NCBI GenBank assembly: GCA_030148605.1
Contig: JASBTD010000016.1
Coordinates: forward strand, 8,006-72,005
Length of the DNA stretch: 64,000 nucleotides
Reading direction: 5' to 3'
DNA from: Erythrobacter sp.
GTDB lineage: Bacteria > Pseudomonadota > Alphaproteobacteria > Sphingomonadales > Sphingomonadaceae
This document shows positions 4,175 to 56,793 of the stretch, piece after piece. The notes beneath the pieces were generated by a model. That model was not told where the DNA came from. It saw only the letters and a program-made list of their open reading frames with translations, and ran no database searches. Each line of letters opens with the position of its first letter. The stretch's first letter is position 1. A program made the position numbers and the translations under genes.

Positions 4175-4945
4175 GTGCGCACAAGGGGGATTTGCGCGAT
4201 GGACCCGCGTTTTGCGACAAGGCATGCTTTCGACAGCCGTTTCTGGGCACTGATCTGGCTTTACATTCTCGTCATTGTTCTGGTGGGTTTCAGTCCACCG
4301 GTTCAGGACCGCTTCTTCGACGATTTTCAGGAACCTGCTTCCATTGCGCTGCAACTGCATGTGTGGAGCTTTGGCGCTTGGATGGTGCTGCTCGCCACGC
4401 AGGCCTGGTTCGCCAGCACAGGGCGGATGGAACGACACCGGATGTTCGGCAACGCGATGCTGCCGCTCGCGGCGGTGATGGTGCTGTCGGCAGGGATAGC
4501 CGAGCTGCAATTCCACCAAAGAGTGATTGCCAATGGCGGCAATGAGGCGGGCTTCACCGCAATCAGCGGCACCTATCTGCTGCCTTTCTGCGTGCTCGTG
4601 CCAATGGCATGGATCGCGCGCAAAGACCCGCCTGCGCACAAGCGGCTGATCCTGATGGCGACCGCTACTATCTGCGCCGGTGCGCATTTGCGCGCGGTCA
4701 GCATCTTCTCGCCAGAGGCGTTCTGGCGCAGCGATGCCTATCTCAACCATCTGGTGTTCGGCTTTGGCGGATCGATGCTGATCATCGCGATGGGCATGGC
4801 TTATGACCTCTATTCCAGAGGGAGCTTGCACCCGGTCTACCGCAAGGTCGCACCGGCGCTGTTCGTGCTCTATGTCGTGGCGGCCTGGGCCTATGGCAGC
4901 GAGGGCTATGCCGACATCGCGCGGCGAGTGATCGAAGCGCTTTAG
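4175..4945 (+). CDS. Hypothetical multi-pass membrane protein with His-containing helices
   Basis: About 7 hydrophobic segments; LQLHV, RHRMFG and AHKRLILMAT motifs. Confidence 0.7.
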   Translation: MRTRGICAMDPRFATRHAFDSRFWALIWLYILVIVLVGFSPPVQDRFFDDFQEPASIALQLHVWSFGAWMVLLATQAWFASTGRMERHRMFGNAMLPLAAVMVLSAGIAELQFHQRVIANGGNEAGFTAISGTYLLPFCVLVPMAWIARKDPPAHKRLILMATATICAGAHLRAVSIFSPEAFWRSDAYLNHLVFGFGGSMLIIAMGMAYDLYSRGSLHPVYRKVAPALFVLYVVAAWAYGSEGYADIARRVIEAL

Positions 4946-5000
4946 GCTCGCAAGTCCAACATTCATCACCCGGCATCACAAGGATCCAGGTGGAATGGTT

Positions 5001-5216
5001 TTACTGGCTTTCCAGCTCTTCAGCGGCGCGGCGCTGGGCGCGCGCTTCTTCCGCCTCGGCGCGATCGGTCGCAACCTTGCGCGCCTGCGCCGCCAGCCCG
5101 CGCCAGGTCTTCTCCGCTCGCAGCTCGCGCTCGCGCACATTTTCAAGCTCCGCCTCTTTCGCCCTTACAGCGGCTTCTTCCGCGCGTTCGTGATAGAGTT
5201 CGTAAGTCTGGGCCAT
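5001..5216 (-). CDS. Small coiled-coil hypothetical protein
   Basis: MAQTYELYHERAEEA...ENVRERELRAEKTWRGLA; Glu/Ala/Arg-rich; GGAG precedes the ATG. Confidence 0.7.
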   Translation of the reverse strand: MAQTYELYHERAEEAAVRAKEAELENVRERELRAEKTWRGLAAQARKVATDRAEAEEARAQRRAAEELESQ

Positions 5217-5307
5217 GGGCGGTTCCTGTGTGCGTGGGTTTAAAAGATCAGCGGGCGAGAAAGGGTGGAGCCGGCATGTGCACGGCCCCACCCCGTTCCG
5301 ATTGCGA

Positions 5308-5520
5308 TCAGTCAGCAGCCGAAAGGTTGACGGCGCTTTCCTTGCCATTGCGGCCCATTTCCACGTCATAGTTAAGGCGCTGGTCCTTATCGAGCGTGGT
5401 CATGCCGCCTGCCTGCACGGCAGAGATATGGACGAAGCTGTCGCTTGAGCCATCGTCGGGCTGGATAAAGCCATAGCCCTTGTCGGTGTTGAAGAATTTT
5501 ACTGTGCCAGTCTTGGCCAT
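5308..5520 (-). CDS. cspA: Cold-shock protein
   Basis: GTVKFFNTDKGYGFIQP (RNP1) and FVHISAV (RNP2). Confidence 0.95.
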   Translation of the reverse strand: MAKTGTVKFFNTDKGYGFIQPDDGSSDSFVHISAVQAGGMTTLDKDQRLNYDVEMGRNGKESAVNLSAAD

Positions 5521-5900: not shown

Positions 5901-6278
5901 TTAGATCACTTCATTCGCCCGTGTGATGAAGGCGCGGGATCGGACGAAGTCGATAAAGTTCTTCTCATCCTCGAACAGGATCACGGCGTGCCTGTGCCCC
6001 TCTTCAGTGGCAGCGGCGGCGGCGACGGCCTCCTCGCTGTCGAACCACAACTCGGCCACGCCGTCAAAATCCTCACCATCGCCATAGGGGATGCCGCGCC
6101 CTGCATTGTTCGCGGCCGCGATTGGACTGTCGACGGTATGCTGCTGGATATAGCGGCGAATGCCCAGTGCCTCACGCGCGTCCTCGACCAGCGGGGCGTG
6201 CGTGTTGCGCCAATAGTCCTGGAACTGCGCGCGGGAGAGCGAAGGGAGACGATGCAGGCAGTACGTGAGTTTGATCAT
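5901..6278 (-). CDS. EthD-domain protein (dimeric alpha/beta barrel)
   Basis: F..YW...HAPLV, FDGVAELWFDS and DEKNFID motifs; the start overlaps the doc stop (ATGA). Confidence 0.9.
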   Translation of the reverse strand: MIKLTYCLHRLPSLSRAQFQDYWRNTHAPLVEDAREALGIRRYIQQHTVDSPIAAANNAGRGIPYGDGEDFDGVAELWFDSEEAVAAAAATEEGHRHAVILFEDEKNFIDFVRSRAFITRANEVI

Positions 6279-6281
6279 GGA
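6085..6281. repeat. 197-bp direct repeat, copy 1 (5' half of ethD)
   Basis: Aligns without gaps to 7099-7295 with 13 mismatches by manual count. Confidence 0.95.
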
Positions 6282-7097: not shown

Positions 7098-7293
7098 CTA
7101 GGGGATGCCGCGCCCTTCATTGTTGGCCGCCGCAATCGGGCTGTCGACGGTGTGCTGCTGGATATAGCGGCGAATGCCCAGTGCCTCACGCGCGTCCTCG
7201 ACCAGCGGGGCGTGCGTGTTGCGCCAATAGTCCTGAAACTGAGCGCGGGAGAGCGAAGGGAGCCGGTGAAGGCAGTAAGTGAGTTTGATCATG
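7098..7293 (-). pseudogene. Truncated ethD 5' fragment (direct repeat copy 2)
   Basis: MIKLTYCLHRL...NNEGRGIP then TAG, where the intact copy continues TAT GGC. Confidence 0.9.
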
Positions 7294-7355
7294 GAAAGAG
7301 CGCTACAATCAGGATTGAAGTTTTTTGGAAACAAATATTGAAGTAACATTCTATA

Positions 7356-14522: not shown

Positions 14523-15452
14523 ATGACCAGTAATACAAAGACCCGTTCGCACCTCACGCTGCTGCTGGCAGGCGTTGCCATGGCCGGGGCTGCGGCCACG
14601 CCGGCGCAGGCCGGCCCGTTCGATTTCATCAAGCGCGCGGTCAAACAGGAACTGAAAGAGACATTTGAAGCGACGACGGAAAGCGTGGTTGAAAGCGCAA
14701 TGCAGACTGCGGTCGAGACCACTTTCAAGGTCGAGAAAGGCGAGCAGGCACAGGCAAGCCGCGAAGGCTTCCGTCAGGAAGGCCACACCACTGTCGGCAC
14801 TGCAGATGATATCCAGGCGCCCGAGCTGGCTCAGGCACAGGTCGGTCGCGGCCGCACTCAGGCACGCGCCGGCATCGGTGAAGCCATGACCAGCCAGAAC
14901 GGCACCACGGTGGAAACTGCCAGCGAAGTGCAGAGCGATCCAGCTGCGACAGCTGCCGATGCTGAGCCGCAGGACGCCTTCATGACCTTTAACGGCCCAG
15001 ATGCAGCTGCGCGTTCAAGTGTGCAGTATCCGTATCGGCTTGAAAACAAGATGAGCCAGAACGGAACCACGGTTGAAACCGCCAGCGAAGTGCAAGCTCA
15101 ACAGCGCCCGCAGGCTGTCCCGCCCTCTCAAACCAAGGGCAAAGTGGAAGCCACTTGGAAGTTAGAAGAGGGCGAAGCCGCGGCAGCCGGTGGCGGTGCT
15201 GCCGGCGCCGGGAAGGCAACGTTCAAGGAGTATCGAACGAACCCGGCTCGCGCCCGGATGAGCCAGAACGGCACCACGGTTGAAACCGCCAGCGAAGTGC
15301 AGGCTCCGCAGGCCGAACAGGCAGGACTGTTGCTACCTGCTGTTCAAGCCAATCGCGCGGCTTCACGCCCGCAACGTGGCAAGCTGAGCCAGAACGGCAC
15401 AACCGTCGCCACGGCAAACGAAGTGCAGGCGCCAAATCGCGAACGCGATTGA
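14523..15452 (+). CDS. Secreted repeat protein of unknown function
   Basis: Signal peptide ending AQA. Four SQNGTTV(E/A)TA(S/N)EVQ repeats plus one degenerate copy. Followed by a terminator. Confidence 0.8.
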   Translation: MTSNTKTRSHLTLLLAGVAMAGAAATPAQAGPFDFIKRAVKQELKETFEATTESVVESAMQTAVETTFKVEKGEQAQASREGFRQEGHTTVGTADDIQAPELAQAQVGRGRTQARAGIGEAMTSQNGTTVETASEVQSDPAATAADAEPQDAFMTFNGPDAAARSSVQYPYRLENKMSQNGTTVETASEVQAQQRPQAVPPSQTKGKVEATWKLEEGEAAAAGGGAAGAGKATFKEYRTNPARARMSQNGTTVETASEVQAPQAEQAGLLLPAVQANRAASRPQRGKLSQNGTTVATANEVQAPNRERD

Positions 15453-32189: not shown

Positions 32190-33398
32190 ATGAGCGGGCG
32201 CGAAACCGATGTAGCAATAGTGGGCGGCGGCTTGGCCGGGGGCCTCATCGCGCTTGCCTTGCACAAGGCGCAACCGCAATGGCGCATCCAGCTGATCGAA
32301 GCGGGCGCAACGCTGGGCGGGAACCATCGCTGGAGCTGGTTCGACAGCGATCTGTCACCGGCAGGCGAAGCATTGCTCGAACCCTTCCGCAAGGTTGAAT
32401 GGGACAGCGGCTATGACGTGGCTTTTCCTAAACATCGCCGCACTCTCAAGGCCGATTACCGTTCGCTCGCCTCTGCCGATTTTCACAGCGGCCTGACGCG
32501 CGAATTGCCGACTGAAGCGATCCGGCTAAACACGCACGTCGCATCGCTTGATGCAGAAGGGGTCACGCTGGAGGACGGCGAGCGAATTGCAGCACGCTCC
32601 GTGATCGATTGCCGCAACTTCACCCCGTCACCGCACCTTTTGGGCGGATGGCAGATCTTCATGGGGCGGCATATCCGGCTTGACGAGCCGCACTCCGTCG
32701 AACGCCCGGTGATCATGGATGCCAGCGTTACCCAGCATGCTCCGGCTGGCAATCGATGCGCCTACCGCTTCATGTATGTGCTGCCGCTTGCCCGCGACGA
32801 ACTGTTCTTCGAAGATACCTATTACGACGAGACACCGGTGATGGACCGGGATCTGCTGAGTCGCCGGATCGCTGGTTATGCCAGCGACATGGGGTTTCCC
32901 GATGGCGAGGAAATTGGGCGCGAGGCCGGAATTCTGCCGGTGATTACCGGCGGCAATTTCAAAGCCTATCTGCGCTCGATCCGCATTCCCGGTGTGGCGA
33001 CGGCGGGGGCACGCGGCGGTTTCACCCATCCGCTCACCAGCTATACTGTGCCGATCGCAGTCGAAAACGCGCTCGCGATTGCCGAACGCAGCGATCTGTC
33101 CGGCCAGCAGCTCGCCGCATGGTGCGAAAATCGCGCGCGGGCACATTGGCGCAAGACTGCGATCTATCGCGCATTGGGGCGGATGCTGTTCAAGGCCGCG
33201 GAACCGGATCGCCGCGTAGACATTTTTCAAAGGTTCTACCGGCTTCCAGAGGAGCTGATCGAACGTTTCTATGCGTGCCGCACAAGCTTGCCTGACCAGG
33301 CGCGCATCCTCATGGGCAGGCCGCCCGTATCTATACCGCGTGCAATCCGCGCGCTTGCGAGCAAGGGTGAACCCTTGACCATGGAGACACCGCAATGA
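32190..33398 (+). CDS. crtY: Lycopene beta-cyclase
   Basis: IVGGGLAG, GGNHRWSW, RFMYVLP, EDTYY, FTHPLTSYTVP and IFQRFYRL. Confidence 0.93.
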   Translation: MSGRETDVAIVGGGLAGGLIALALHKAQPQWRIQLIEAGATLGGNHRWSWFDSDLSPAGEALLEPFRKVEWDSGYDVAFPKHRRTLKADYRSLASADFHSGLTRELPTEAIRLNTHVASLDAEGVTLEDGERIAARSVIDCRNFTPSPHLLGGWQIFMGRHIRLDEPHSVERPVIMDASVTQHAPAGNRCAYRFMYVLPLARDELFFEDTYYDETPVMDRDLLSRRIAGYASDMGFPDGEEIGREAGILPVITGGNFKAYLRSIRIPGVATAGARGGFTHPLTSYTVPIAVENALAIAERSDLSGQQLAAWCENRARAHWRKTAIYRALGRMLFKAAEPDRRVDIFQRFYRLPEELIERFYACRTSLPDQARILMGRPPVSIPRAIRALASKGEPLTMETPQ

Positions 33399-34960
33399 CC
33401 GCGCAGACCGGGATTACGCAAACGCCGCCGCGCGCGCAGCAGAAGATCGATCCGGCCAGTTATGACGGCAAGAGCGCTTGCGTGATCGGATCGGGCTTTG
33501 GCGGCATGGCGCTGGCGATAAGGCTGCAATCGGCGGGCATCGCGACGACTGTGGTGGAAGCGCGAGACAAGCCCGGTGGGCGCGCCTATTTCTGGGAAAA
33601 GGAAGGTTTCACCTTTGATGGCGGGCCGACTGTTGTCACTGATCCCGATTGCCTGAAGGAACTGTGGCAATTGACCGGGCATGACATGGCTGAAGATGTC
33701 GAACTGATGCGGGTAATGCCCTTCTACCGGCTCAACTGGCCCGACGGCACGAATTTCGATTACTCGAATGACGAGGAAAGCCTCAATGCAGAGATCGCCA
33801 AGCTCGATCCGGCTGACGTAGCTGGCTATGCCGAGTTCCTCGAGTATTCCGCAGGCGTCTATGAAGAAGGCTATTTGAAGCTTGGCACTGTGCCATTCCT
33901 CGATTTCAAGAGCATGCTCAAGGCGGCCCCCGCGCTGATCAAGAAGCAGGCCTGGCGCAGCGTCTATTCCATGGTCTCAAGCTTCGTGAAGAGCGAGAAG
34001 CTGCGTGAGGCGCTCTCGTTCCACACGCTGCTGGTCGGCGGCAATCCGATGAACACCAGCGCAATCTACGCGCTGATCCACAAGCTCGAAAAAGACGGCG
34101 GCGTGTGGTGGACACGCGGCGGCACCAATCGCCTGATCGCAGGCATGGTGCGCCACTTCGAGCGACTGGGCGGCACCATGCGCGTTGGCGATCCGGTGGT
34201 GCAGGTCCACACGATCGGCAGCAAGGCATGCGAAGTCGAAACGCAAAGCGGCTGGAAACAGCGCTTTGATGCGGTCGCCAGCAATGCCGACATCATGCAC
34301 AGCTATCGCGATCTGCTGAGTGGCACCAAGCGCGGGCAGGACTATGCCAAGTCGCTTTCACGCAAAAGCTTCAGCCCCGGGCTGTTTGTGGTGCATTTCG
34401 GGCTGGAAGGGACTTGGCCGGGCATACCGCATCACATGATCCTGTTCGGTCCGCGCTACAAAGGGCTACTGGACGATATATACAAGCAAGGCGTATTGCC
34501 GCGGGACTTCAGCATTTACCTGCATCACCCGACCGTCACCGATCCGAGCATGGCGCCCAAGGGCAAGAGCACTTTCTATGCGCTGGTCCCCGTCGCGCAT
34601 ATGGGCAAGCTGGCAGTCGATTGGGACAAGGTCGGGCCAATGCTGGAGAAGCGCATTCTCGACGAGATCGGGCGGCGTCTGATCCCTGACATCCATGACC
34701 GGATCGTGACCAAGTTCAGCTATGCGCCAAAGGATTTTGCGCATGATCTGAACGCGCATCTGGGCAGTGCGTTCAGCTTGGAGCCGGTGCTGTGGCAAAG
34801 CGCCTATCTGCGCGGCCACAACCGCGATGATGTGATCGACAATTTCTACCTCGTCGGCGCTGGCACGCACCCGGGCGCAGGGATTCCCGGGGTCGTCGGC
34901 AGTGCAAAAGCGACTGCGGGCTTGATGCTCGAAGACTTGGCAAGGAAATCCTCCCCGTGA
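33395..34960 (+). CDS. crtI: Phytoene desaturase
   Basis: IGSGFGG, RDKPGGRAY, FTFDGGPTV and VGAGTHPGAGIPGVVGSAKATA. Confidence 0.96.
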   Translation: MTAQTGITQTPPRAQQKIDPASYDGKSACVIGSGFGGMALAIRLQSAGIATTVVEARDKPGGRAYFWEKEGFTFDGGPTVVTDPDCLKELWQLTGHDMAEDVELMRVMPFYRLNWPDGTNFDYSNDEESLNAEIAKLDPADVAGYAEFLEYSAGVYEEGYLKLGTVPFLDFKSMLKAAPALIKKQAWRSVYSMVSSFVKSEKLREALSFHTLLVGGNPMNTSAIYALIHKLEKDGGVWWTRGGTNRLIAGMVRHFERLGGTMRVGDPVVQVHTIGSKACEVETQSGWKQRFDAVASNADIMHSYRDLLSGTKRGQDYAKSLSRKSFSPGLFVVHFGLEGTWPGIPHHMILFGPRYKGLLDDIYKQGVLPRDFSIYLHHPTVTDPSMAPKGKSTFYALVPVAHMGKLAVDWDKVGPMLEKRILDEIGRRLIPDIHDRIVTKFSYAPKDFAHDLNAHLGSAFSLEPVLWQSAYLRGHNRDDVIDNFYLVGAGTHPGAGIPGVVGSAKATAGLMLEDLARKSSP

Positions 34961-35414
34961 CGGGGAGGGGGACCGCGACGCGAAGCGGCGGGGTGGAGGG
35001 GCATTGACCACGCAACTCAGTGAAGCTTGCTCGCAAGCTGCGCAGCGAAATGTCGCTACCAGAGGTCTTGCTTTGGCGAGAATTGCGCAAGCGTCCGGGT
35101 GGTTTCAAGTTCCGGCGACAACACGCCGCAGGCCCGTTTGTGCTGGATTTCTACTGCGCCAGCGCTCGGCTTGATCTCGAAATCGATGGTGTTACGCATG
35201 ACACCGCACCAGCCGTGAAAAGGGACCTGGCGCGATCCGGATATTTGCGATCGCGTGGCATTGCCACCACGCGCGTTCCGGCCAGCTTGGTGCTTGAAGA
35301 TATCGAAGCGGTGGTTATGCGGGTAGTGGAGATATGTAACCAACGAACGGAGTCCGCCATGGCGCCCCTCCACCATCCTGCGGATGGTCCCCCTCCCCTT
35401 GCAGGGGAGGATTT
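34946..35414. mobile_element. DUF559 nuclease cassette bounded by composite inverted repeats
   Basis: Three perfectly complementary segment pairs: 34946-56/35404-14 (11 bp), 34962-74/35386-98 (13 bp) and 34992-35002/35364-74 (11 bp). Each end also carries its own CCTCCCC-N5-GGGGAGG hairpin. Confidence 0.8.
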
Positions 35415-35418
35415 GTGA
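35020..35418 (+). CDS. DUF559/Vsr-like endonuclease-domain protein
   Basis: ARKLRSEMSLPEVLLWRELR, FRRQH..GPFVLDFYC and LEIDGVTHD. GTG start; the N-terminus may be truncated. Confidence 0.85.
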   Translation: MKLARKLRSEMSLPEVLLWRELRKRPGGFKFRRQHAAGPFVLDFYCASARLDLEIDGVTHDTAPAVKRDLARSGYLRSRGIATTRVPASLVLEDIEAVVMRVVEICNQRTESAMAPLHHPADGPPPLAGEDL

Positions 35419-35996
35419 ACCGTCTTGCAGTCTATTGCGGCTCTGCCACACCACAGGACCCGCGCTACATCGAACTCGCCACTGAAGTAGGACGCAGCCT
35501 CGCCTTGCGCGAGATCGGCGTGGTCTATGGCGGCGGCAGGCTGGGCTTGATGGGCGCAGTGGCGCGCGGCGCACTCGACGCAGGCGGCGAAGTGATCGGT
35601 GTGATCCCCGAAGCGCTCGCCAATAGCGAAGTCGCCAACCACGATTGCACCGAGCTTTACACCGTATCCGGCATGCATGAGCGCAAGCAGCGCTTCACTG
35701 ACCTGTCTGACGGCTTCATCACCATCCCCGGCGGGGTGGGCACGATGGACGAGCTGTGGGAAGCGATGAGCTGGGCGCAGCTTGGTTATCACTCGAAACC
35801 CGTTGGCTTGCTCAATGCGATGGGCTTTTTCGACCATCTGATCGCGTTCAACGAAAAGATGGCGGAAGTCGGCTTTGTCCGCGCGGCGCATCAGAATATC
35901 CTGATCCATTCAGACACCATGGGCGATTTGCTCGACAAGATGGCCGCGTATGAACCGCACACGCCGATCTTCCGCATGAAAGCGGAGGATTTGTGA
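35415..35996 (+). CDS. LOG-family nucleotide phosphoribohydrolase (TIGR00730)
   Basis: AVYCGS, VYGGGRLGLMG, MHERK and PGGVGTMDELWE. Confidence 0.92.
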   Translation: MNRLAVYCGSATPQDPRYIELATEVGRSLALREIGVVYGGGRLGLMGAVARGALDAGGEVIGVIPEALANSEVANHDCTELYTVSGMHERKQRFTDLSDGFITIPGGVGTMDELWEAMSWAQLGYHSKPVGLLNAMGFFDHLIAFNEKMAEVGFVRAAHQNILIHSDTMGDLLDKMAAYEPHTPIFRMKAEDL

Positions 35997-36022: not shown

Positions 36023-36094
36023 GCCCGCGCCCTCCACCCTTCCACCCGGAGCCTACCGGGTAATCATCCGGGTGGAAGGGTGGAGGGTGCGGGC
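36023..36094. repeat. Long palindrome, copy 1 (28-bp arms, 16-nt loop)
   Basis: gcccgcgccctccacccttccacccgga ... tccgggtggaagggtggagggtgcgggc, with one mismatch. Confidence 0.9.
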
Positions 36095-56712: not shown

Positions 56713-56793
56713 GCCACCCGCGCCCTCCACCCTTCCACCGGTATCGTAACCCGGTGTGATAATCCGGGTGGAAGGGTGGAGGGCGCGGGTGGC
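56713..56793. repeat. Long palindrome, copy 2 (27-bp perfect arms)
   Basis: gccacccgcgccctccacccttccacc ... ggtggaagggtggagggcgcgggtggc; same family as 36023-36094. Confidence 0.9.

Follow-up and report, generated by a model that had tools for sequence, protein, structure and literature searches.

A DUF559 nuclease gene within composite hairpin inverted repeats: a candidate REP/REPIN-RAYT-like cassette family built on a different enzyme

Between crtI and a LOG-family gene of an Erythrobacter sp., a gene for a DUF559, or Vsr-like, nuclease is bounded by composite inverted repeats that recur around its homologs in Sphingomonadales. Comparison of these homologs within the order, and of the site analysed here (a 64-kb stretch of 64,000 nucleotides, hereafter the window), established that the cassette is a discrete unit for which NTGA stop/start overlaps are the exact points of gain, loss or exchange, and that each nuclease paralog is matched to a dispersed repeat family of its own. 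With confidence slightly better than even, we interpret the window segment as a slightly damaged member of a cassette family that resembles the REP/REPIN-RAYT systems and is built on a different enzyme. Cassettes and gene-less mini elements together apparently constitute a widespread and undescribed family, as the element was not found in the literature on DUF559/ycjD, on Vsr-like nucleases with inverted repeats or on REPIN/RAYT systems in Sphingomonas.

The cassette is delimited by three nested complementary pairs, all of which had been recognized in a preliminary description of the window and all of which are perfect (Table 1). Equally borne out were the CCTCCCC-N5-GGGGAGG hairpins at the two ends, which fold locally as DNA (z = -3.4 and -2.7), and the contribution of the left repeat to crtI, whose terminal K-S-S-P-TGA falls within the left hairpin. 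These two hairpins are the only occurrences of the motif in the 64 kb, against an expectation of 0 from shuffled sequences, and no second copy of the cassette repeats exists elsewhere within the window. The repeats had also been said to enclose the ORF; the pairing is real, but the right repeat lies within the gene, where it makes up the final 18 codons of the DUF559 reading frame. The C-terminal tail that it encodes (PLHHPADGPPPLAGEDL) is disordered in the structural model (pLDDT 37-58). The neighbors of the ORF in the window are crtY, crtI, LOG, crtB and a biotin carboxylase gene. Rfam covariance models returned no match at E <= 1 across 34800-35600, and a second palindromic repeat of the window (36023-36094) has no plasmid matches.

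Table 1. Coordinates of the cassette, its repeats and the adjoining host genes, in window numbering.
Feature	Position	Strand	Remarks
crtI (phytoene desaturase), upstream host gene	33395-34960	+	last four codons and stop from left repeat
Cassette	34946-35414		469 bp; DUF559 ORF between two ~55-nt composite inverted repeats, two hairpins per repeat
Left terminal inverted repeat	34946-35002	+	57 nt; outer AAAT, hairpin 1, block A, hairpin 2, block B
Left hairpin 1	34950-34968	+	CCTCCCC-GTGAC-GGGGAGG; loop holds crtI stop TGA (34958-34960)
Block A	34962-34974	+	GGGGAGGGGGACC; no variation across family
Left hairpin 2	34972-34994	+	ACC-GCGACGCGAAGCGGCGG-GGT; GAA triloop
Block B	34992-35002	+	GGTGGAGGGGC; GGAGG inside is Shine-Dalgarno of intact DUF559 copies
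14-bp deletion site	35005-35006	+	CCCCGTGATCGGTG absent after 35005; kept in near-identical strains
Remaining DUF559/Vsr-like nuclease ORF	35020-35418	+	132 aa; start is an internal GTG
Right terminal inverted repeat	35364-35414	+	51 nt; block B', hairpin 2', block A', hairpin 1', ATTT
Right hairpin 2'	35372-35388	+	
Block A'	35386-35398	+	
Right hairpin 1'	35392-35410	+	
GTGA overlap	35415-35418	+	LOG start GTG with DUF559 stop TGA (35416-35418); GGAGG 4 nt upstream
LOG-family gene, downstream host gene	35415-35996	+	
Outermost pair	34946-34956 / 35404-35414		AAATCCTCCCC / GGGGAGGATTT; perfect complement
Block A pair	34962-34974 / 35386-35398		GGGGAGGGGGACC / GGTCCCCCTCCCC; perfect complement
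Block B pair	34992-35002 / 35364-35374		GGTGGAGGGGC / GCCCCTCCACC; perfect complement

As had been proposed, the DUF559 gene is the sole ORF of the full-length element: the protein matches PF04480 (E 1.9e-21; 76.4 bits vs a cut-off of 20.6; profile positions 5-108 of 109), and no DDE, HUH or serine/tyrosine recombinase is encoded in the element. A search of NCBIfam returned the generic DUF559 model alone, under its cut-off, and a PHROGs search gave no match. Residues D43, E54, D56 and H60 (window ORF numbering), which correspond to the Vsr-like catalytic residues, are invariant or nearly so among 23 sequences, and the DUF559 core is under purifying selection (dN/dS 0.03-0.2). The protein matches PDB 3HRL in both sequence (E 5e-20) and structure (TM 0.79), and Vsr (1VSR) in structure (TM 0.55). 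Intact relatives encode 140 aa with an N-terminus of M/V-I-T-G-P. The window copy, whose short GTG-started N-terminus had already suggested decay, is indeed damaged: a 14-bp deletion, evident from contigs of runs X8 and X9 and from alignment A2 with L347/P0001, took away its GTG start along with four codons. This copy is probably poorly expressed or silent.

The preliminary description had called for a search for the same inverted repeats around homologs elsewhere, and they flank 80 of 80 genomic homologs from Sphingomonadales (58-74% amino acid identity), the left-repeat module being found 5' of every one (80/80). Terminal inverted repeats with arms of 51-57 nt are conserved in 81 full copies. 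The cassette occupies at least six different operon junctions in both orientations, namely those of crtI-LOG, ETF-QO and ispE, ivd-mccB, ivd and a small ORF, mccB-mccA (both orientations) and, in Sphingomonas, pntAA-pntAB. At 66 of 69 family copies the nuclease stop overlaps the start of the next gene as NTGA, and in the window the right repeat places GGAGG 4 nt before the LOG GTG at 35415, so that the earlier proposal of ends that donate translation signals holds in the form of a Shine-Dalgarno sequence combined with a stop/start overlap. The outward-facing GGAGG and the overlap may render residence in operons harmless. Hairpin 1 would sequester the downstream Shine-Dalgarno sequence unless ribosomes traverse the nuclease ORF, an arrangement that may make translation of the downstream gene depend on an intact nuclease ORF. 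The NTGA motif is also a possible target or duplication, as it flanks many operon copies on both sides (L001, L003, L054; mini elements L017, L018, L051), and GCGCATGA stands on each side of the cassette in L024. At the window copy there is no target-site duplication, as originally stated, and none is consistent around the 23 complete mini elements from metagenomes. Immediately beyond the element ends, the bases are A/T-rich and partly complementary, possibly by chance.

The crtI-LOG junction exists in three states: empty, occupied by the full cassette, or occupied by a gene-less mini element. The full cassette is present in 28 species of many genera, and a 119-bp mini element occurs on one metagenome contig (L146). 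Empty sites, for which a search among relatives had been advised, take the form of an ATGA overlap and are found in the four closest LOG relatives of the window and on a ~98% identical contig (run X9), next to the occupied form; no other member of the window's crtI+LOG clade is occupied. The preliminary description had said that DUF559 stably present at this position in all relatives would contradict it; the position is instead empty in some relatives, and none of the other contradicting observations that it named, as far as these can be checked by computation, was made. From the original view of an inserted mobile element we retain a discrete unit that moved over evolutionary time, but not a recent insertion, because the junction is shared by 28 species. 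Comparison of DUF559 with the host genes, also advised at the outset, gave r = 0.77, and the crtI-LOG copies have been inherited mostly vertically. The L017 copy at this junction is 82-86% identical to ivd-site copies and ~66% identical to those of hosts 93% identical to it; this cassette is an inter-site replacement. Full copies that share one genome are 60-70% identical and cluster by site, and as old paralogs they give no sign of recent copy-and-paste. Given this sharing among species, vertical descent and old paralogy, the autonomous transposon first envisaged is a poorer description than a REPIN/RAYT-like or homing-like system. Assembled contigs of the window's strain (runs X1 and X3) contain no excision or inversion joints.

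Gene-less derivatives consist of two arms back to back or of solo arms, the latter forming mini-ORFs in L013 and L033. Mini elements lie in surroundings of every gene orientation and are not confined to operon junctions, and in the window's organism the metagenome depth of the arm is ~22x that of flanking sequence. The matching of nuclease to repeat is illustrated by Sphingomonas parapaucimobilis, which has three DUF559 paralogs, each within its own repeat type, with these types dispersed in at least 208, 95 and ~41 places. Mini elements of this species are 10-20% divergent, so no recent burst has taken place. A pattern search for block B gave 80 metagenome matches, 55 of them without the CCTCCCC hairpin and probably representing other repeat types.

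Outside Sphingomonadales, in other orders and phyla, 12-13 of 18 distant DUF559 genes have flanking hairpin inverted repeats of their own (z 7-79). Distant genes flanked in this way occur in Azospirillum, Sinorhizobium, Deinococcus and one cyanobacterium; the DUF559 genes of E. coli, N. gonorrhoeae, A. brasilense, Shinella and Photobacterium are without convincing flanking repeats. As independent statistical support for the REP/REPIN-RAYT-like interpretation, DUF559 genes are ~14-fold enriched among inverted-repeat-flanked 'inversion targets' (PMC9881135). The DUF559 family comprises >14,000 clusters (50% identity, E <= 1e-10). We tentatively put forward, at somewhat less than even confidence, the broader proposal that DUF559 is a second, non-HUH class of repeat-associated nucleases that makes and maintains GC-rich palindromic repeats in Alphaproteobacteria, Deinococcota and Cyanobacteria, with each nuclease housed in a copy of its own repeat and kept in essential operons via translational coupling between its reading frame and the next gene.

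The hairpins themselves are conserved as structures. For hairpin 1, 41 of 45 distinct loops close with a complementary pair (25% expected) and the eighth base pair covaries; for hairpin 2, 38 of 55 distinct inserts are perfect stems (~1 expected) with GNA loops, which are strand-specific and present in both arms. Because compensatory changes in the stems alter the amino acids of the C-terminal tail, it is the nucleic acid that is under selection. When folded as RNA, the whole element forms a long-range panhandle in which arm pairs with arm, which is not decisive because any inverted repeat would fold in this way, and local RNA hairpins do not differ significantly from those of shuffled sequences. 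In the REP/REPIN-RAYT-like interpretation, one or a few nuclease-bearing master copies would reside in housekeeping operons and descend mostly vertically, and many gene-less derivatives would be dispersed through the genome. The nuclease may recognize its own repeats in hairpin or cruciform form, specifically the G-rich strand with its GNA triloops, and may nick or cut them so that repeat-bounded DNA is excised, copied or gene-converted. DUF559 itself would, we infer, be the mobilizing enzyme; a 140-aa nuclease alone is incapable of strand transfer, and it would have to rely on host repair or some other factor.

An alternative that we consider unlikely is a homing-type selfish gene, for which a free-standing DUF559 would cut unoccupied junctions or mini elements and be copied in by homologous repair, the repeats serving as recognition site and/or homology arms and the mini elements spreading otherwise. 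The second-best structural match of the nuclease is the catalytic domain of I-Bth0305I (PMC3239194, PMC3384342; Foldseek TM 0.78), a Vsr-like 'EDxHD' homing endonuclease with the same catalytic fold, a selfish-gene-like character and presence/absence polymorphism at a fixed site. Also in keeping with homing, full copies are few and grouped largely by site, presence or absence at one site is precise among close and distant relatives, the L017 swap resembles gene conversion between repeat-bounded sites, and a 60-nt duplication of the mccA 5' end, found alongside composite copies, resembles a product of one-sided repair. However, I-Bth0305I resides in a group I intron of phage recA, has an extra DNA-binding domain and is without terminal inverted repeats or gene-less mini derivatives, both of which the cassette family possesses. 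Homing would moreover not explain why mini elements and solo arms are scattered in their hundreds over unrelated intergenic sites, why the hairpins of both arms covary and have strand-specific GNA loops, or why every paralog has a dispersed repeat family of its own. Besides NTGA, the junctions have no obvious common target.

Quite improbable, in our estimation, is the reading of DUF559 as a Vsr-like nuclease that serves the host in repair or surveillance and does not act on the hairpins, the latter being ordinary REP-type structural or regulatory elements (mRNA stabilizers, translational couplers or RNase III sites) that the host maintains or an unrelated enzyme has spread. Vsr and Caulobacter VsrA belong to the same superfamily and are likewise small stand-alone nucleases, and VsrA, which has a DUF559 domain, is an active nuclease tied to cytosine methylation (PMC12907096); a host function would also accord with the strong purifying selection and mostly vertical descent, with the role of the right arm in translation and with the capacity of the arms to pair as RNA. 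The cassette nuclease, in contrast to Vsr, belongs to PF04480 rather than PF03852, is bracketed by cognate dispersed repeats and has no adjoining cytosine methyltransferase gene in the window, other cassette sites likewise being metabolic operons. Nor would a role confined to RNA account for an untranslated left arm that mirrors the right, with GNA loops on the opposite strand. The joint absence of the gene and both arms from the closest relatives is equally unaccounted for, as are three paralogs of one genome in three different dispersed repeat families, and at about one element per 20-40 kb it is very unlikely that two arms of the same family would flank a gene by chance.

Very improbable is a passenger role for DUF559, as cargo such as an addiction or defense gene, between MITE-like transposon ends moved in trans by a conventional transposase. 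The terminal inverted repeats, the mini derivatives and the A/T-rich bases at the ends are compatible with such a role, as is a marginal similarity to the defense component DpdF (E 5e-4), the sole match in a PADLOC search. Bacterial MITEs such as the Neisseria Correia elements, ERIC and RUP are similarly non-coding elements of 100-170 bp with terminal inverted repeats, co-transcribed with their neighbors and possibly forming long mRNA hairpins. They nonetheless have links to DDE-type IS ends, or else no enzyme is known for them, and they generate defined duplications, e.g. TA, whereas the full-length cassette encodes a nuclease and a clear duplication is not established for it. Against cargo status, no full copy of any order or phylum carries cargo besides DUF559 and each has a lineage-specific repeat, the neighborhoods examined within +/-5 kb of the 80 loci contain no transposase, and no consistent target-site duplication was found. 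Scarcely credible, finally, is a programmed inversion switch in which recombination at the repeats inverts the DUF559 segment and toggles the nuclease or the downstream gene: DUF559 genes are enriched among predicted targets of programmed inversion (PMC9881135), and the cassette at mccB-mccA has one orientation in Sphingopyxis and Sphingorhabdus and the opposite one in four Novosphingobium species, a reversal seen solely between genera, but orientation is uniform at 28 of 28 crtI-LOG copies and all ispE-site copies, no recombinase or invertase gene lies near the window cassette, contigs aligned to the region from four runs show one orientation throughout with no strand-switch joints, and the empty sites and mini elements would go unexplained.

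The REP/REPIN-RAYT-like reading draws on several shared features, namely short GC-rich palindromes that are scattered between genes and frequently paired as inverted doublets; an enzyme gene that is present once, descends vertically under purifying selection and lies inside its own repeat type; and several cognate gene/repeat pairs per genome (PMC3116915, PMC5581495). Yet RAYT is an HUH Y1 (IS200-like) transposase and the cassette enzyme has a Vsr-like PD-(D/E)XK fold; because the flanked gene is DUF559, the cassette works like a REP/REPIN-RAYT system and is not a member of that group. In contrast to REP/REPIN sequences, the cassette is bounded by true terminal inverted repeats, each ~55 nt long and bearing two hairpins, and one of them is translated as the enzyme's C-terminal tail; the cassette masters lie inside operons with stop/start overlaps and carry no GTAG or CGTC tag. 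Rickettsia palindromic elements (RPEs) are palindromic repeats that are tolerated in coding sequence and translated as an extra peptide, much as the right arm is translated as a tail and solo arms yield small ORFs. To our knowledge, RPEs have neither an associated nuclease gene nor a stop/start-overlap architecture.

DUF559 is a large bacterial family of unknown function, and many palindromic repeat families lack a known mobilizing enzyme. If the pairing of DUF559 with repeats holds across phyla, it would provide a testable function for DUF559, extend the REP/REPIN paradigm to a second class of enzyme and account for many spurious proline/glycine-rich termini among annotated proteins. Additionally, the stop/start-overlap design suggests a route by which a selfish gene could reside harmlessly in essential operons for a very long time. 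For annotation of the window, the last four codons of crtI and the LOG ribosome-binding site are element-derived, and the nuclease gene is to be recorded as N-terminally truncated.

A direct reading of window 34700-35700, combined with a repeat finder, recovered all three perfectly complementary repeat pairs noted in the preliminary description of the 469-bp cassette (34946-35414; table). The CCTCCCC-N5-GGGGAGG hairpin ascribed to each cassette end is present and, within the 64 kb, is confined to these two ends (0 in 100 shuffles), and a second, inner hairpin lies at each end between the conserved blocks. The assignment of the ORF to DUF559 is supported by a PF04480 match (E 1.9e-21), and its gene neighbours are crtY, crtI, a LOG-family gene, crtB and biotin carboxylase. 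As also described, the last codons and stop of crtI (K-S-S-P-TGA) fall within the left hairpin, and GGAGG lies 4 nt upstream of the LOG GTG, which is overlapped by the DUF559 TGA. The placement of the nuclease gene between the repeats holds for the left repeat, which lies outside the gene, but not for the right, which forms the final 18 codons of the ORF. The LOG-family gene itself is embedded between crtI and crtB across Erythrobacteraceae, with the cassette present or absent.

Positions of cassette features and other repeats (window coordinates unless a locus is named)
Feature	Left or first copy	Right or second copy	Detail
Outer pair	AAATCCTCCCC 34946-34956	GGGGAGGATTT 35404-35414	perfectly complementary
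Block A pair	GGGGAGGGGGACC 34962-34974	GGTCCCCCTCCCC 35386-35398	perfectly complementary
Block B pair	GGTGGAGGGGC 34992-35002	GCCCCTCCACC 35364-35374	perfectly complementary
DUF559 ORF	35020-35418		
LOG-family gene	35415-35996		TIGR00730, cytokinin riboside 5'-monophosphate phosphoribohydrolase-like
Palindrome, 28-bp stem	36023-36094 (LOG-crtB spacer)	56713-56793 (between two same-strand genes)	GCCCGCGCCCTCCACCCTTCCACCCGGA ... TCCGGGTGGAAGGGTGGAGGGTGCGGGC
197-nt direct repeat	6085-6281	7099-7295	93% identity, ~1 kb apart
66-nt unit	14888-15448		four copies
Antisense cassette at mccB/mccA	around 4930-5400 of each		Novosphingobium L007, L019, L053, L077
Composite with mccA duplication	L026:737-1430; L067:4863-5540; L073:4768-5480; L074:4795-5480		Sphingorhabdus-type loci
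Solo right arms	L033:5380-5495; L013:5330-5400; L025 around 5336		tiny ORFs

A protein search returned thousands of homologs, the best of which (~140 aa, from Erythrobacteraceae and Novosphingobium) share the N-terminus MITGPRDTV and the C-terminal tail PLHHPADGPPPRxGED. All 80 homolog loci compared, drawn from representative genomes, lie inside matching repeats of one architecture, (A/T)TCCTCCCC-loop-GGGGAGGGGGACC-[variable hairpin]-GGTGGAGGGGC, located ~8 nt before the start codon, and the 3' end of every ORF is the mirror image of this 5' arm. The cassette occupies the junctions crtI/LOG (28 loci), ETF-QO/ispE (27), mccB/mccA (10, plus four Novosphingobium loci with the opposite orientation), ivd/mccB (four), ivd/small ORF (two) and, in Sphingomonas parapaucimobilis, pntAA/pntAB. 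Of the 69 copies whose downstream gene was recognised, 66 have the nuclease stop overlapping the start of that gene as NTGA, and the stop of the upstream gene usually coincides with the left end or closely precedes it.

At mccB/mccA the cassette is antisense to the operon in Novosphingobium and sense in Sphingopyxis and Sphingorhabdus, reflecting either independent insertions or inversion between the arms. At Sphingorhabdus-type loci, a second copy of ~60 nt from the mccA 5' end (ATG through ..IIRT) stands on the left side of a composite made up of [left arm-spacer-right arm], DUF559 and a further right arm. This left mccA copy is decaying, and the duplication resembles the mark that a one-sided repair or insertion event would leave 60 nt into the gene. 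Solo right arms, single and unpaired, form tiny ORFs (e.g. MGVPLYHLADGPPPPVGEE) whose start and stop codons each overlap neighbouring genes, and where a nuclease ORF has acquired an early stop its tail is re-initiated as a separate mini-ORF; these mini-ORFs keep the chain of translational coupling.

Empty sites are found among close relatives of the window. Cassette-free crtI/LOG overlaps of ATGA or GTGA occur in Altererythrobacter litoralis, GCA_003444655, a BRH_c3-like genome and Erythrobacter sp. HKB08, which carry the four closest homologs of LOG (90-93% aa), and contigs of metagenome run X9 contain, beside the occupied allele, an empty one that is ~98% identical over LOG and joins crtI to LOG via 16 nt ending GGCA/TGA. 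A tree built from crtI and LOG places the window as the sole occupied member of a clade with six empty loci, and the neighbouring clades are all occupied. Metagenome contig L146 carries at this junction a 119-bp mini element, a gene-less derivative. Among occupied genomes DUF559 identity follows host-gene identity (r = 0.77), and descent is therefore vertical for the most part. Erythrobacter sp. WG (L017) departs from this: its crtI/LOG copy shares 82-86% identity with ivd-site copies but ~66% with crtI/LOG copies of relatives with 93% identical host genes, a case of cassette replacement between sites. The two within-genome copies in Citromicrobium and in Erythrobacter PB2.004 are old paralogs grouping by site, and no recent copy-and-paste of full-length copies was seen. 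The empty, mini and swapped states speak for mobility at this very junction. Comparison of these loci shows the cassette to be a discrete unit, bounded by repeats, whose gain, loss, miniaturisation and exchange take place precisely at stop/start overlaps.

Near-identical strains (runs X8 and X9, and contig L347 encoding protein P0001, 97% aa) contain, after window 35005, 14 extra nt, CCCCGTGATCGGTG, that restore a GTG start and V-I-G-G codons; the window, like runs X1 and X3, has therefore lost 14 bp by deletion. With the start codon gone, the block-B Shine-Dalgarno is now 21 nt from the next in-frame GTG and the ORF, otherwise intact, lacks MITGPRDTV. The decay suspected from the short N-terminus is accordingly borne out, and the lesion is recent.

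Mini elements, in which a spacer of 20-110 nt separates a left arm from a right arm, occur among the fetched loci (e.g. after biotin carboxylase in four genomes of Erythrobacter) and in metagenome contigs in intergenic contexts of all kinds. More than 120 IMG/VR contigs carry mini elements or arms, and unpaired arms outnumber pairs; these contigs (including L227-L306) are classed as viral, and many are 15-20 kb. In metagenomes holding the window strain, arm depth is ~22 times flanking depth, and an arm is also present on six or more further contigs with the depth of the organism, including one at ETF-QO/ispE; no further copies lie inside the 64-kb window. The replicons of S. parapaucimobilis YK209 match a 136-bp mini element in at least 208 places and encode a single cognate DUF559. 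Two other DUF559 paralogs of that genome, at sufB/sufC (L097) and gatB-yqeY/dnaG (L098), each lie within another type of hairpin repeat, found dispersed at 95 and ~41 places of the genome, respectively. Every nuclease is thus matched by a repeat family of its own, and this three-for-three pairing is the strongest argument for a functional nuclease-repeat link, as for RAYTs with REPs. In L098 the long N-terminal extension of the annotated protein is simply translated left arm.

The hairpins are under constraint as nucleic acid, and the nuclease is under separate selection. The 179 arms contain 55 distinct inner-hairpin sequences, 38 of which form perfect stems of at least 3 bp, extended by flanking ACC/GGT, versus ~1 expected; the loops on the G-rich strand are almost always GCA, GAA, GTA or GGA. 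In 41 of the 45 distinct outer 'loops' the first and last bases are complementary; they add an eighth base pair, which covaries, and leave a triloop. In the right arm, compensatory stem changes alter the encoded residues (HHPADG, HQPAAG, HHAAHG, HQTASG), within a C-terminal tail that is disordered in the AlphaFold model (pLDDT 37-58) beside a confident core. The inner hairpins of one element often differ in sequence between its arms, so what is maintained is the local hairpin, not arm-to-arm pairing. The untranslated left arm mirrors the right, and the purine-rich loops switch strand from one end to the other, features that fit a readout of each end as DNA better than a role at the RNA level alone. 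The nuclease, too, has stayed functional over long time spans. Its core dN/dS is 0.03-0.2 in all but one of 15 pairs, with dS reaching 0.9; the remaining pair, near-identical (dS 0.024), has 0.64. The conserved arm blocks are invariant across the same distances.

Strong inverted repeats also bracket 12-13 of 18 distant DUF559 genes sampled from plasmid and chromid records, and share the design of the cassette arms, a C-rich/G-rich hairpin containing GGAG and a GGGGTGxGGG-type block. Sinorhizobium meliloti has arms of 114 nt (96% complementary), three Deinococcus species have flanks of 56 nt at 98%, with one cassette between paaD and paaZ (L091 of Deinococcus psychrotolerans is at this junction), and genes of Azospirillum lipoferum, Pseudanabaena, Novosphingobium, Sphingobium and Qipengyuania are also flanked; comparable repeats are absent from the E. 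coli, A. brasilense, Shinella and Photobacterium copies examined. Paralogs L097, L098 and L091 lie between essential or catabolic operon genes, each within its own repeat type. A published survey lists 'DUF559 domain-containing protein' as ~14-fold enriched among predicted inversion targets (genes overlapped by inverted repeats), with no further comment there (PMC9881135). The family is large, comprising 14,156 clusters at 50% identity (E <= 1e-10).

We somewhat favor a reading of the cassette family by analogy with REP/REPIN-RAYT systems, to which the element is similar in its manner of working but not in its enzyme, a Vsr-like PD-(D/E)XK fold rather than the HUH fold of RAYTs. The nuclease would recognize the hairpin or cruciform form of its own repeats and nick or cut there, and host repair would then complete excision, copying or conversion. 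The outward-facing GGAGG and NTGA overlap may enable the element to live inside operons, with the downstream Shine-Dalgarno presumably held in hairpin 1 until ribosomes traverse the nuclease tail; an inactivated nuclease ORF could then depress the downstream gene, a possible persistence mechanism. The nuclease matches PDB 3HRL on sequence, and its structural matches are 3HRL, the catalytic domain of the homing endonuclease I-Bth0305I, PvuRts1I and Vsr. A homing-type variant is consistent with this fold, but Vsr-like homing endonucleases are without the inverted repeats and mini derivatives of the cassette, and we consider it unlikely. Still less probable is a host nuclease accompanied by unrelated regulatory or REP hairpins; that DUF559 is the cargo of another transposase seems decidedly improbable, and an inversion switch is the reading to which we give very little credence. 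No description of DUF559 paired with dispersed hairpin repeats was found in the literature, and the pairing would count as a new category should the nuclease turn out to be the mobilizing enzyme.

Other repeats are present in the window. The palindrome with the 28-bp stem, unrelated to the cassette, has a block-B-like CCCTCCACC motif within that stem, is multi-copy in metagenomes (depth 194 vs 34) and has no matches in plasmids. The 197-nt direct repeat is present in two copies, and the 66-nt unit probably encodes a protein repeat.
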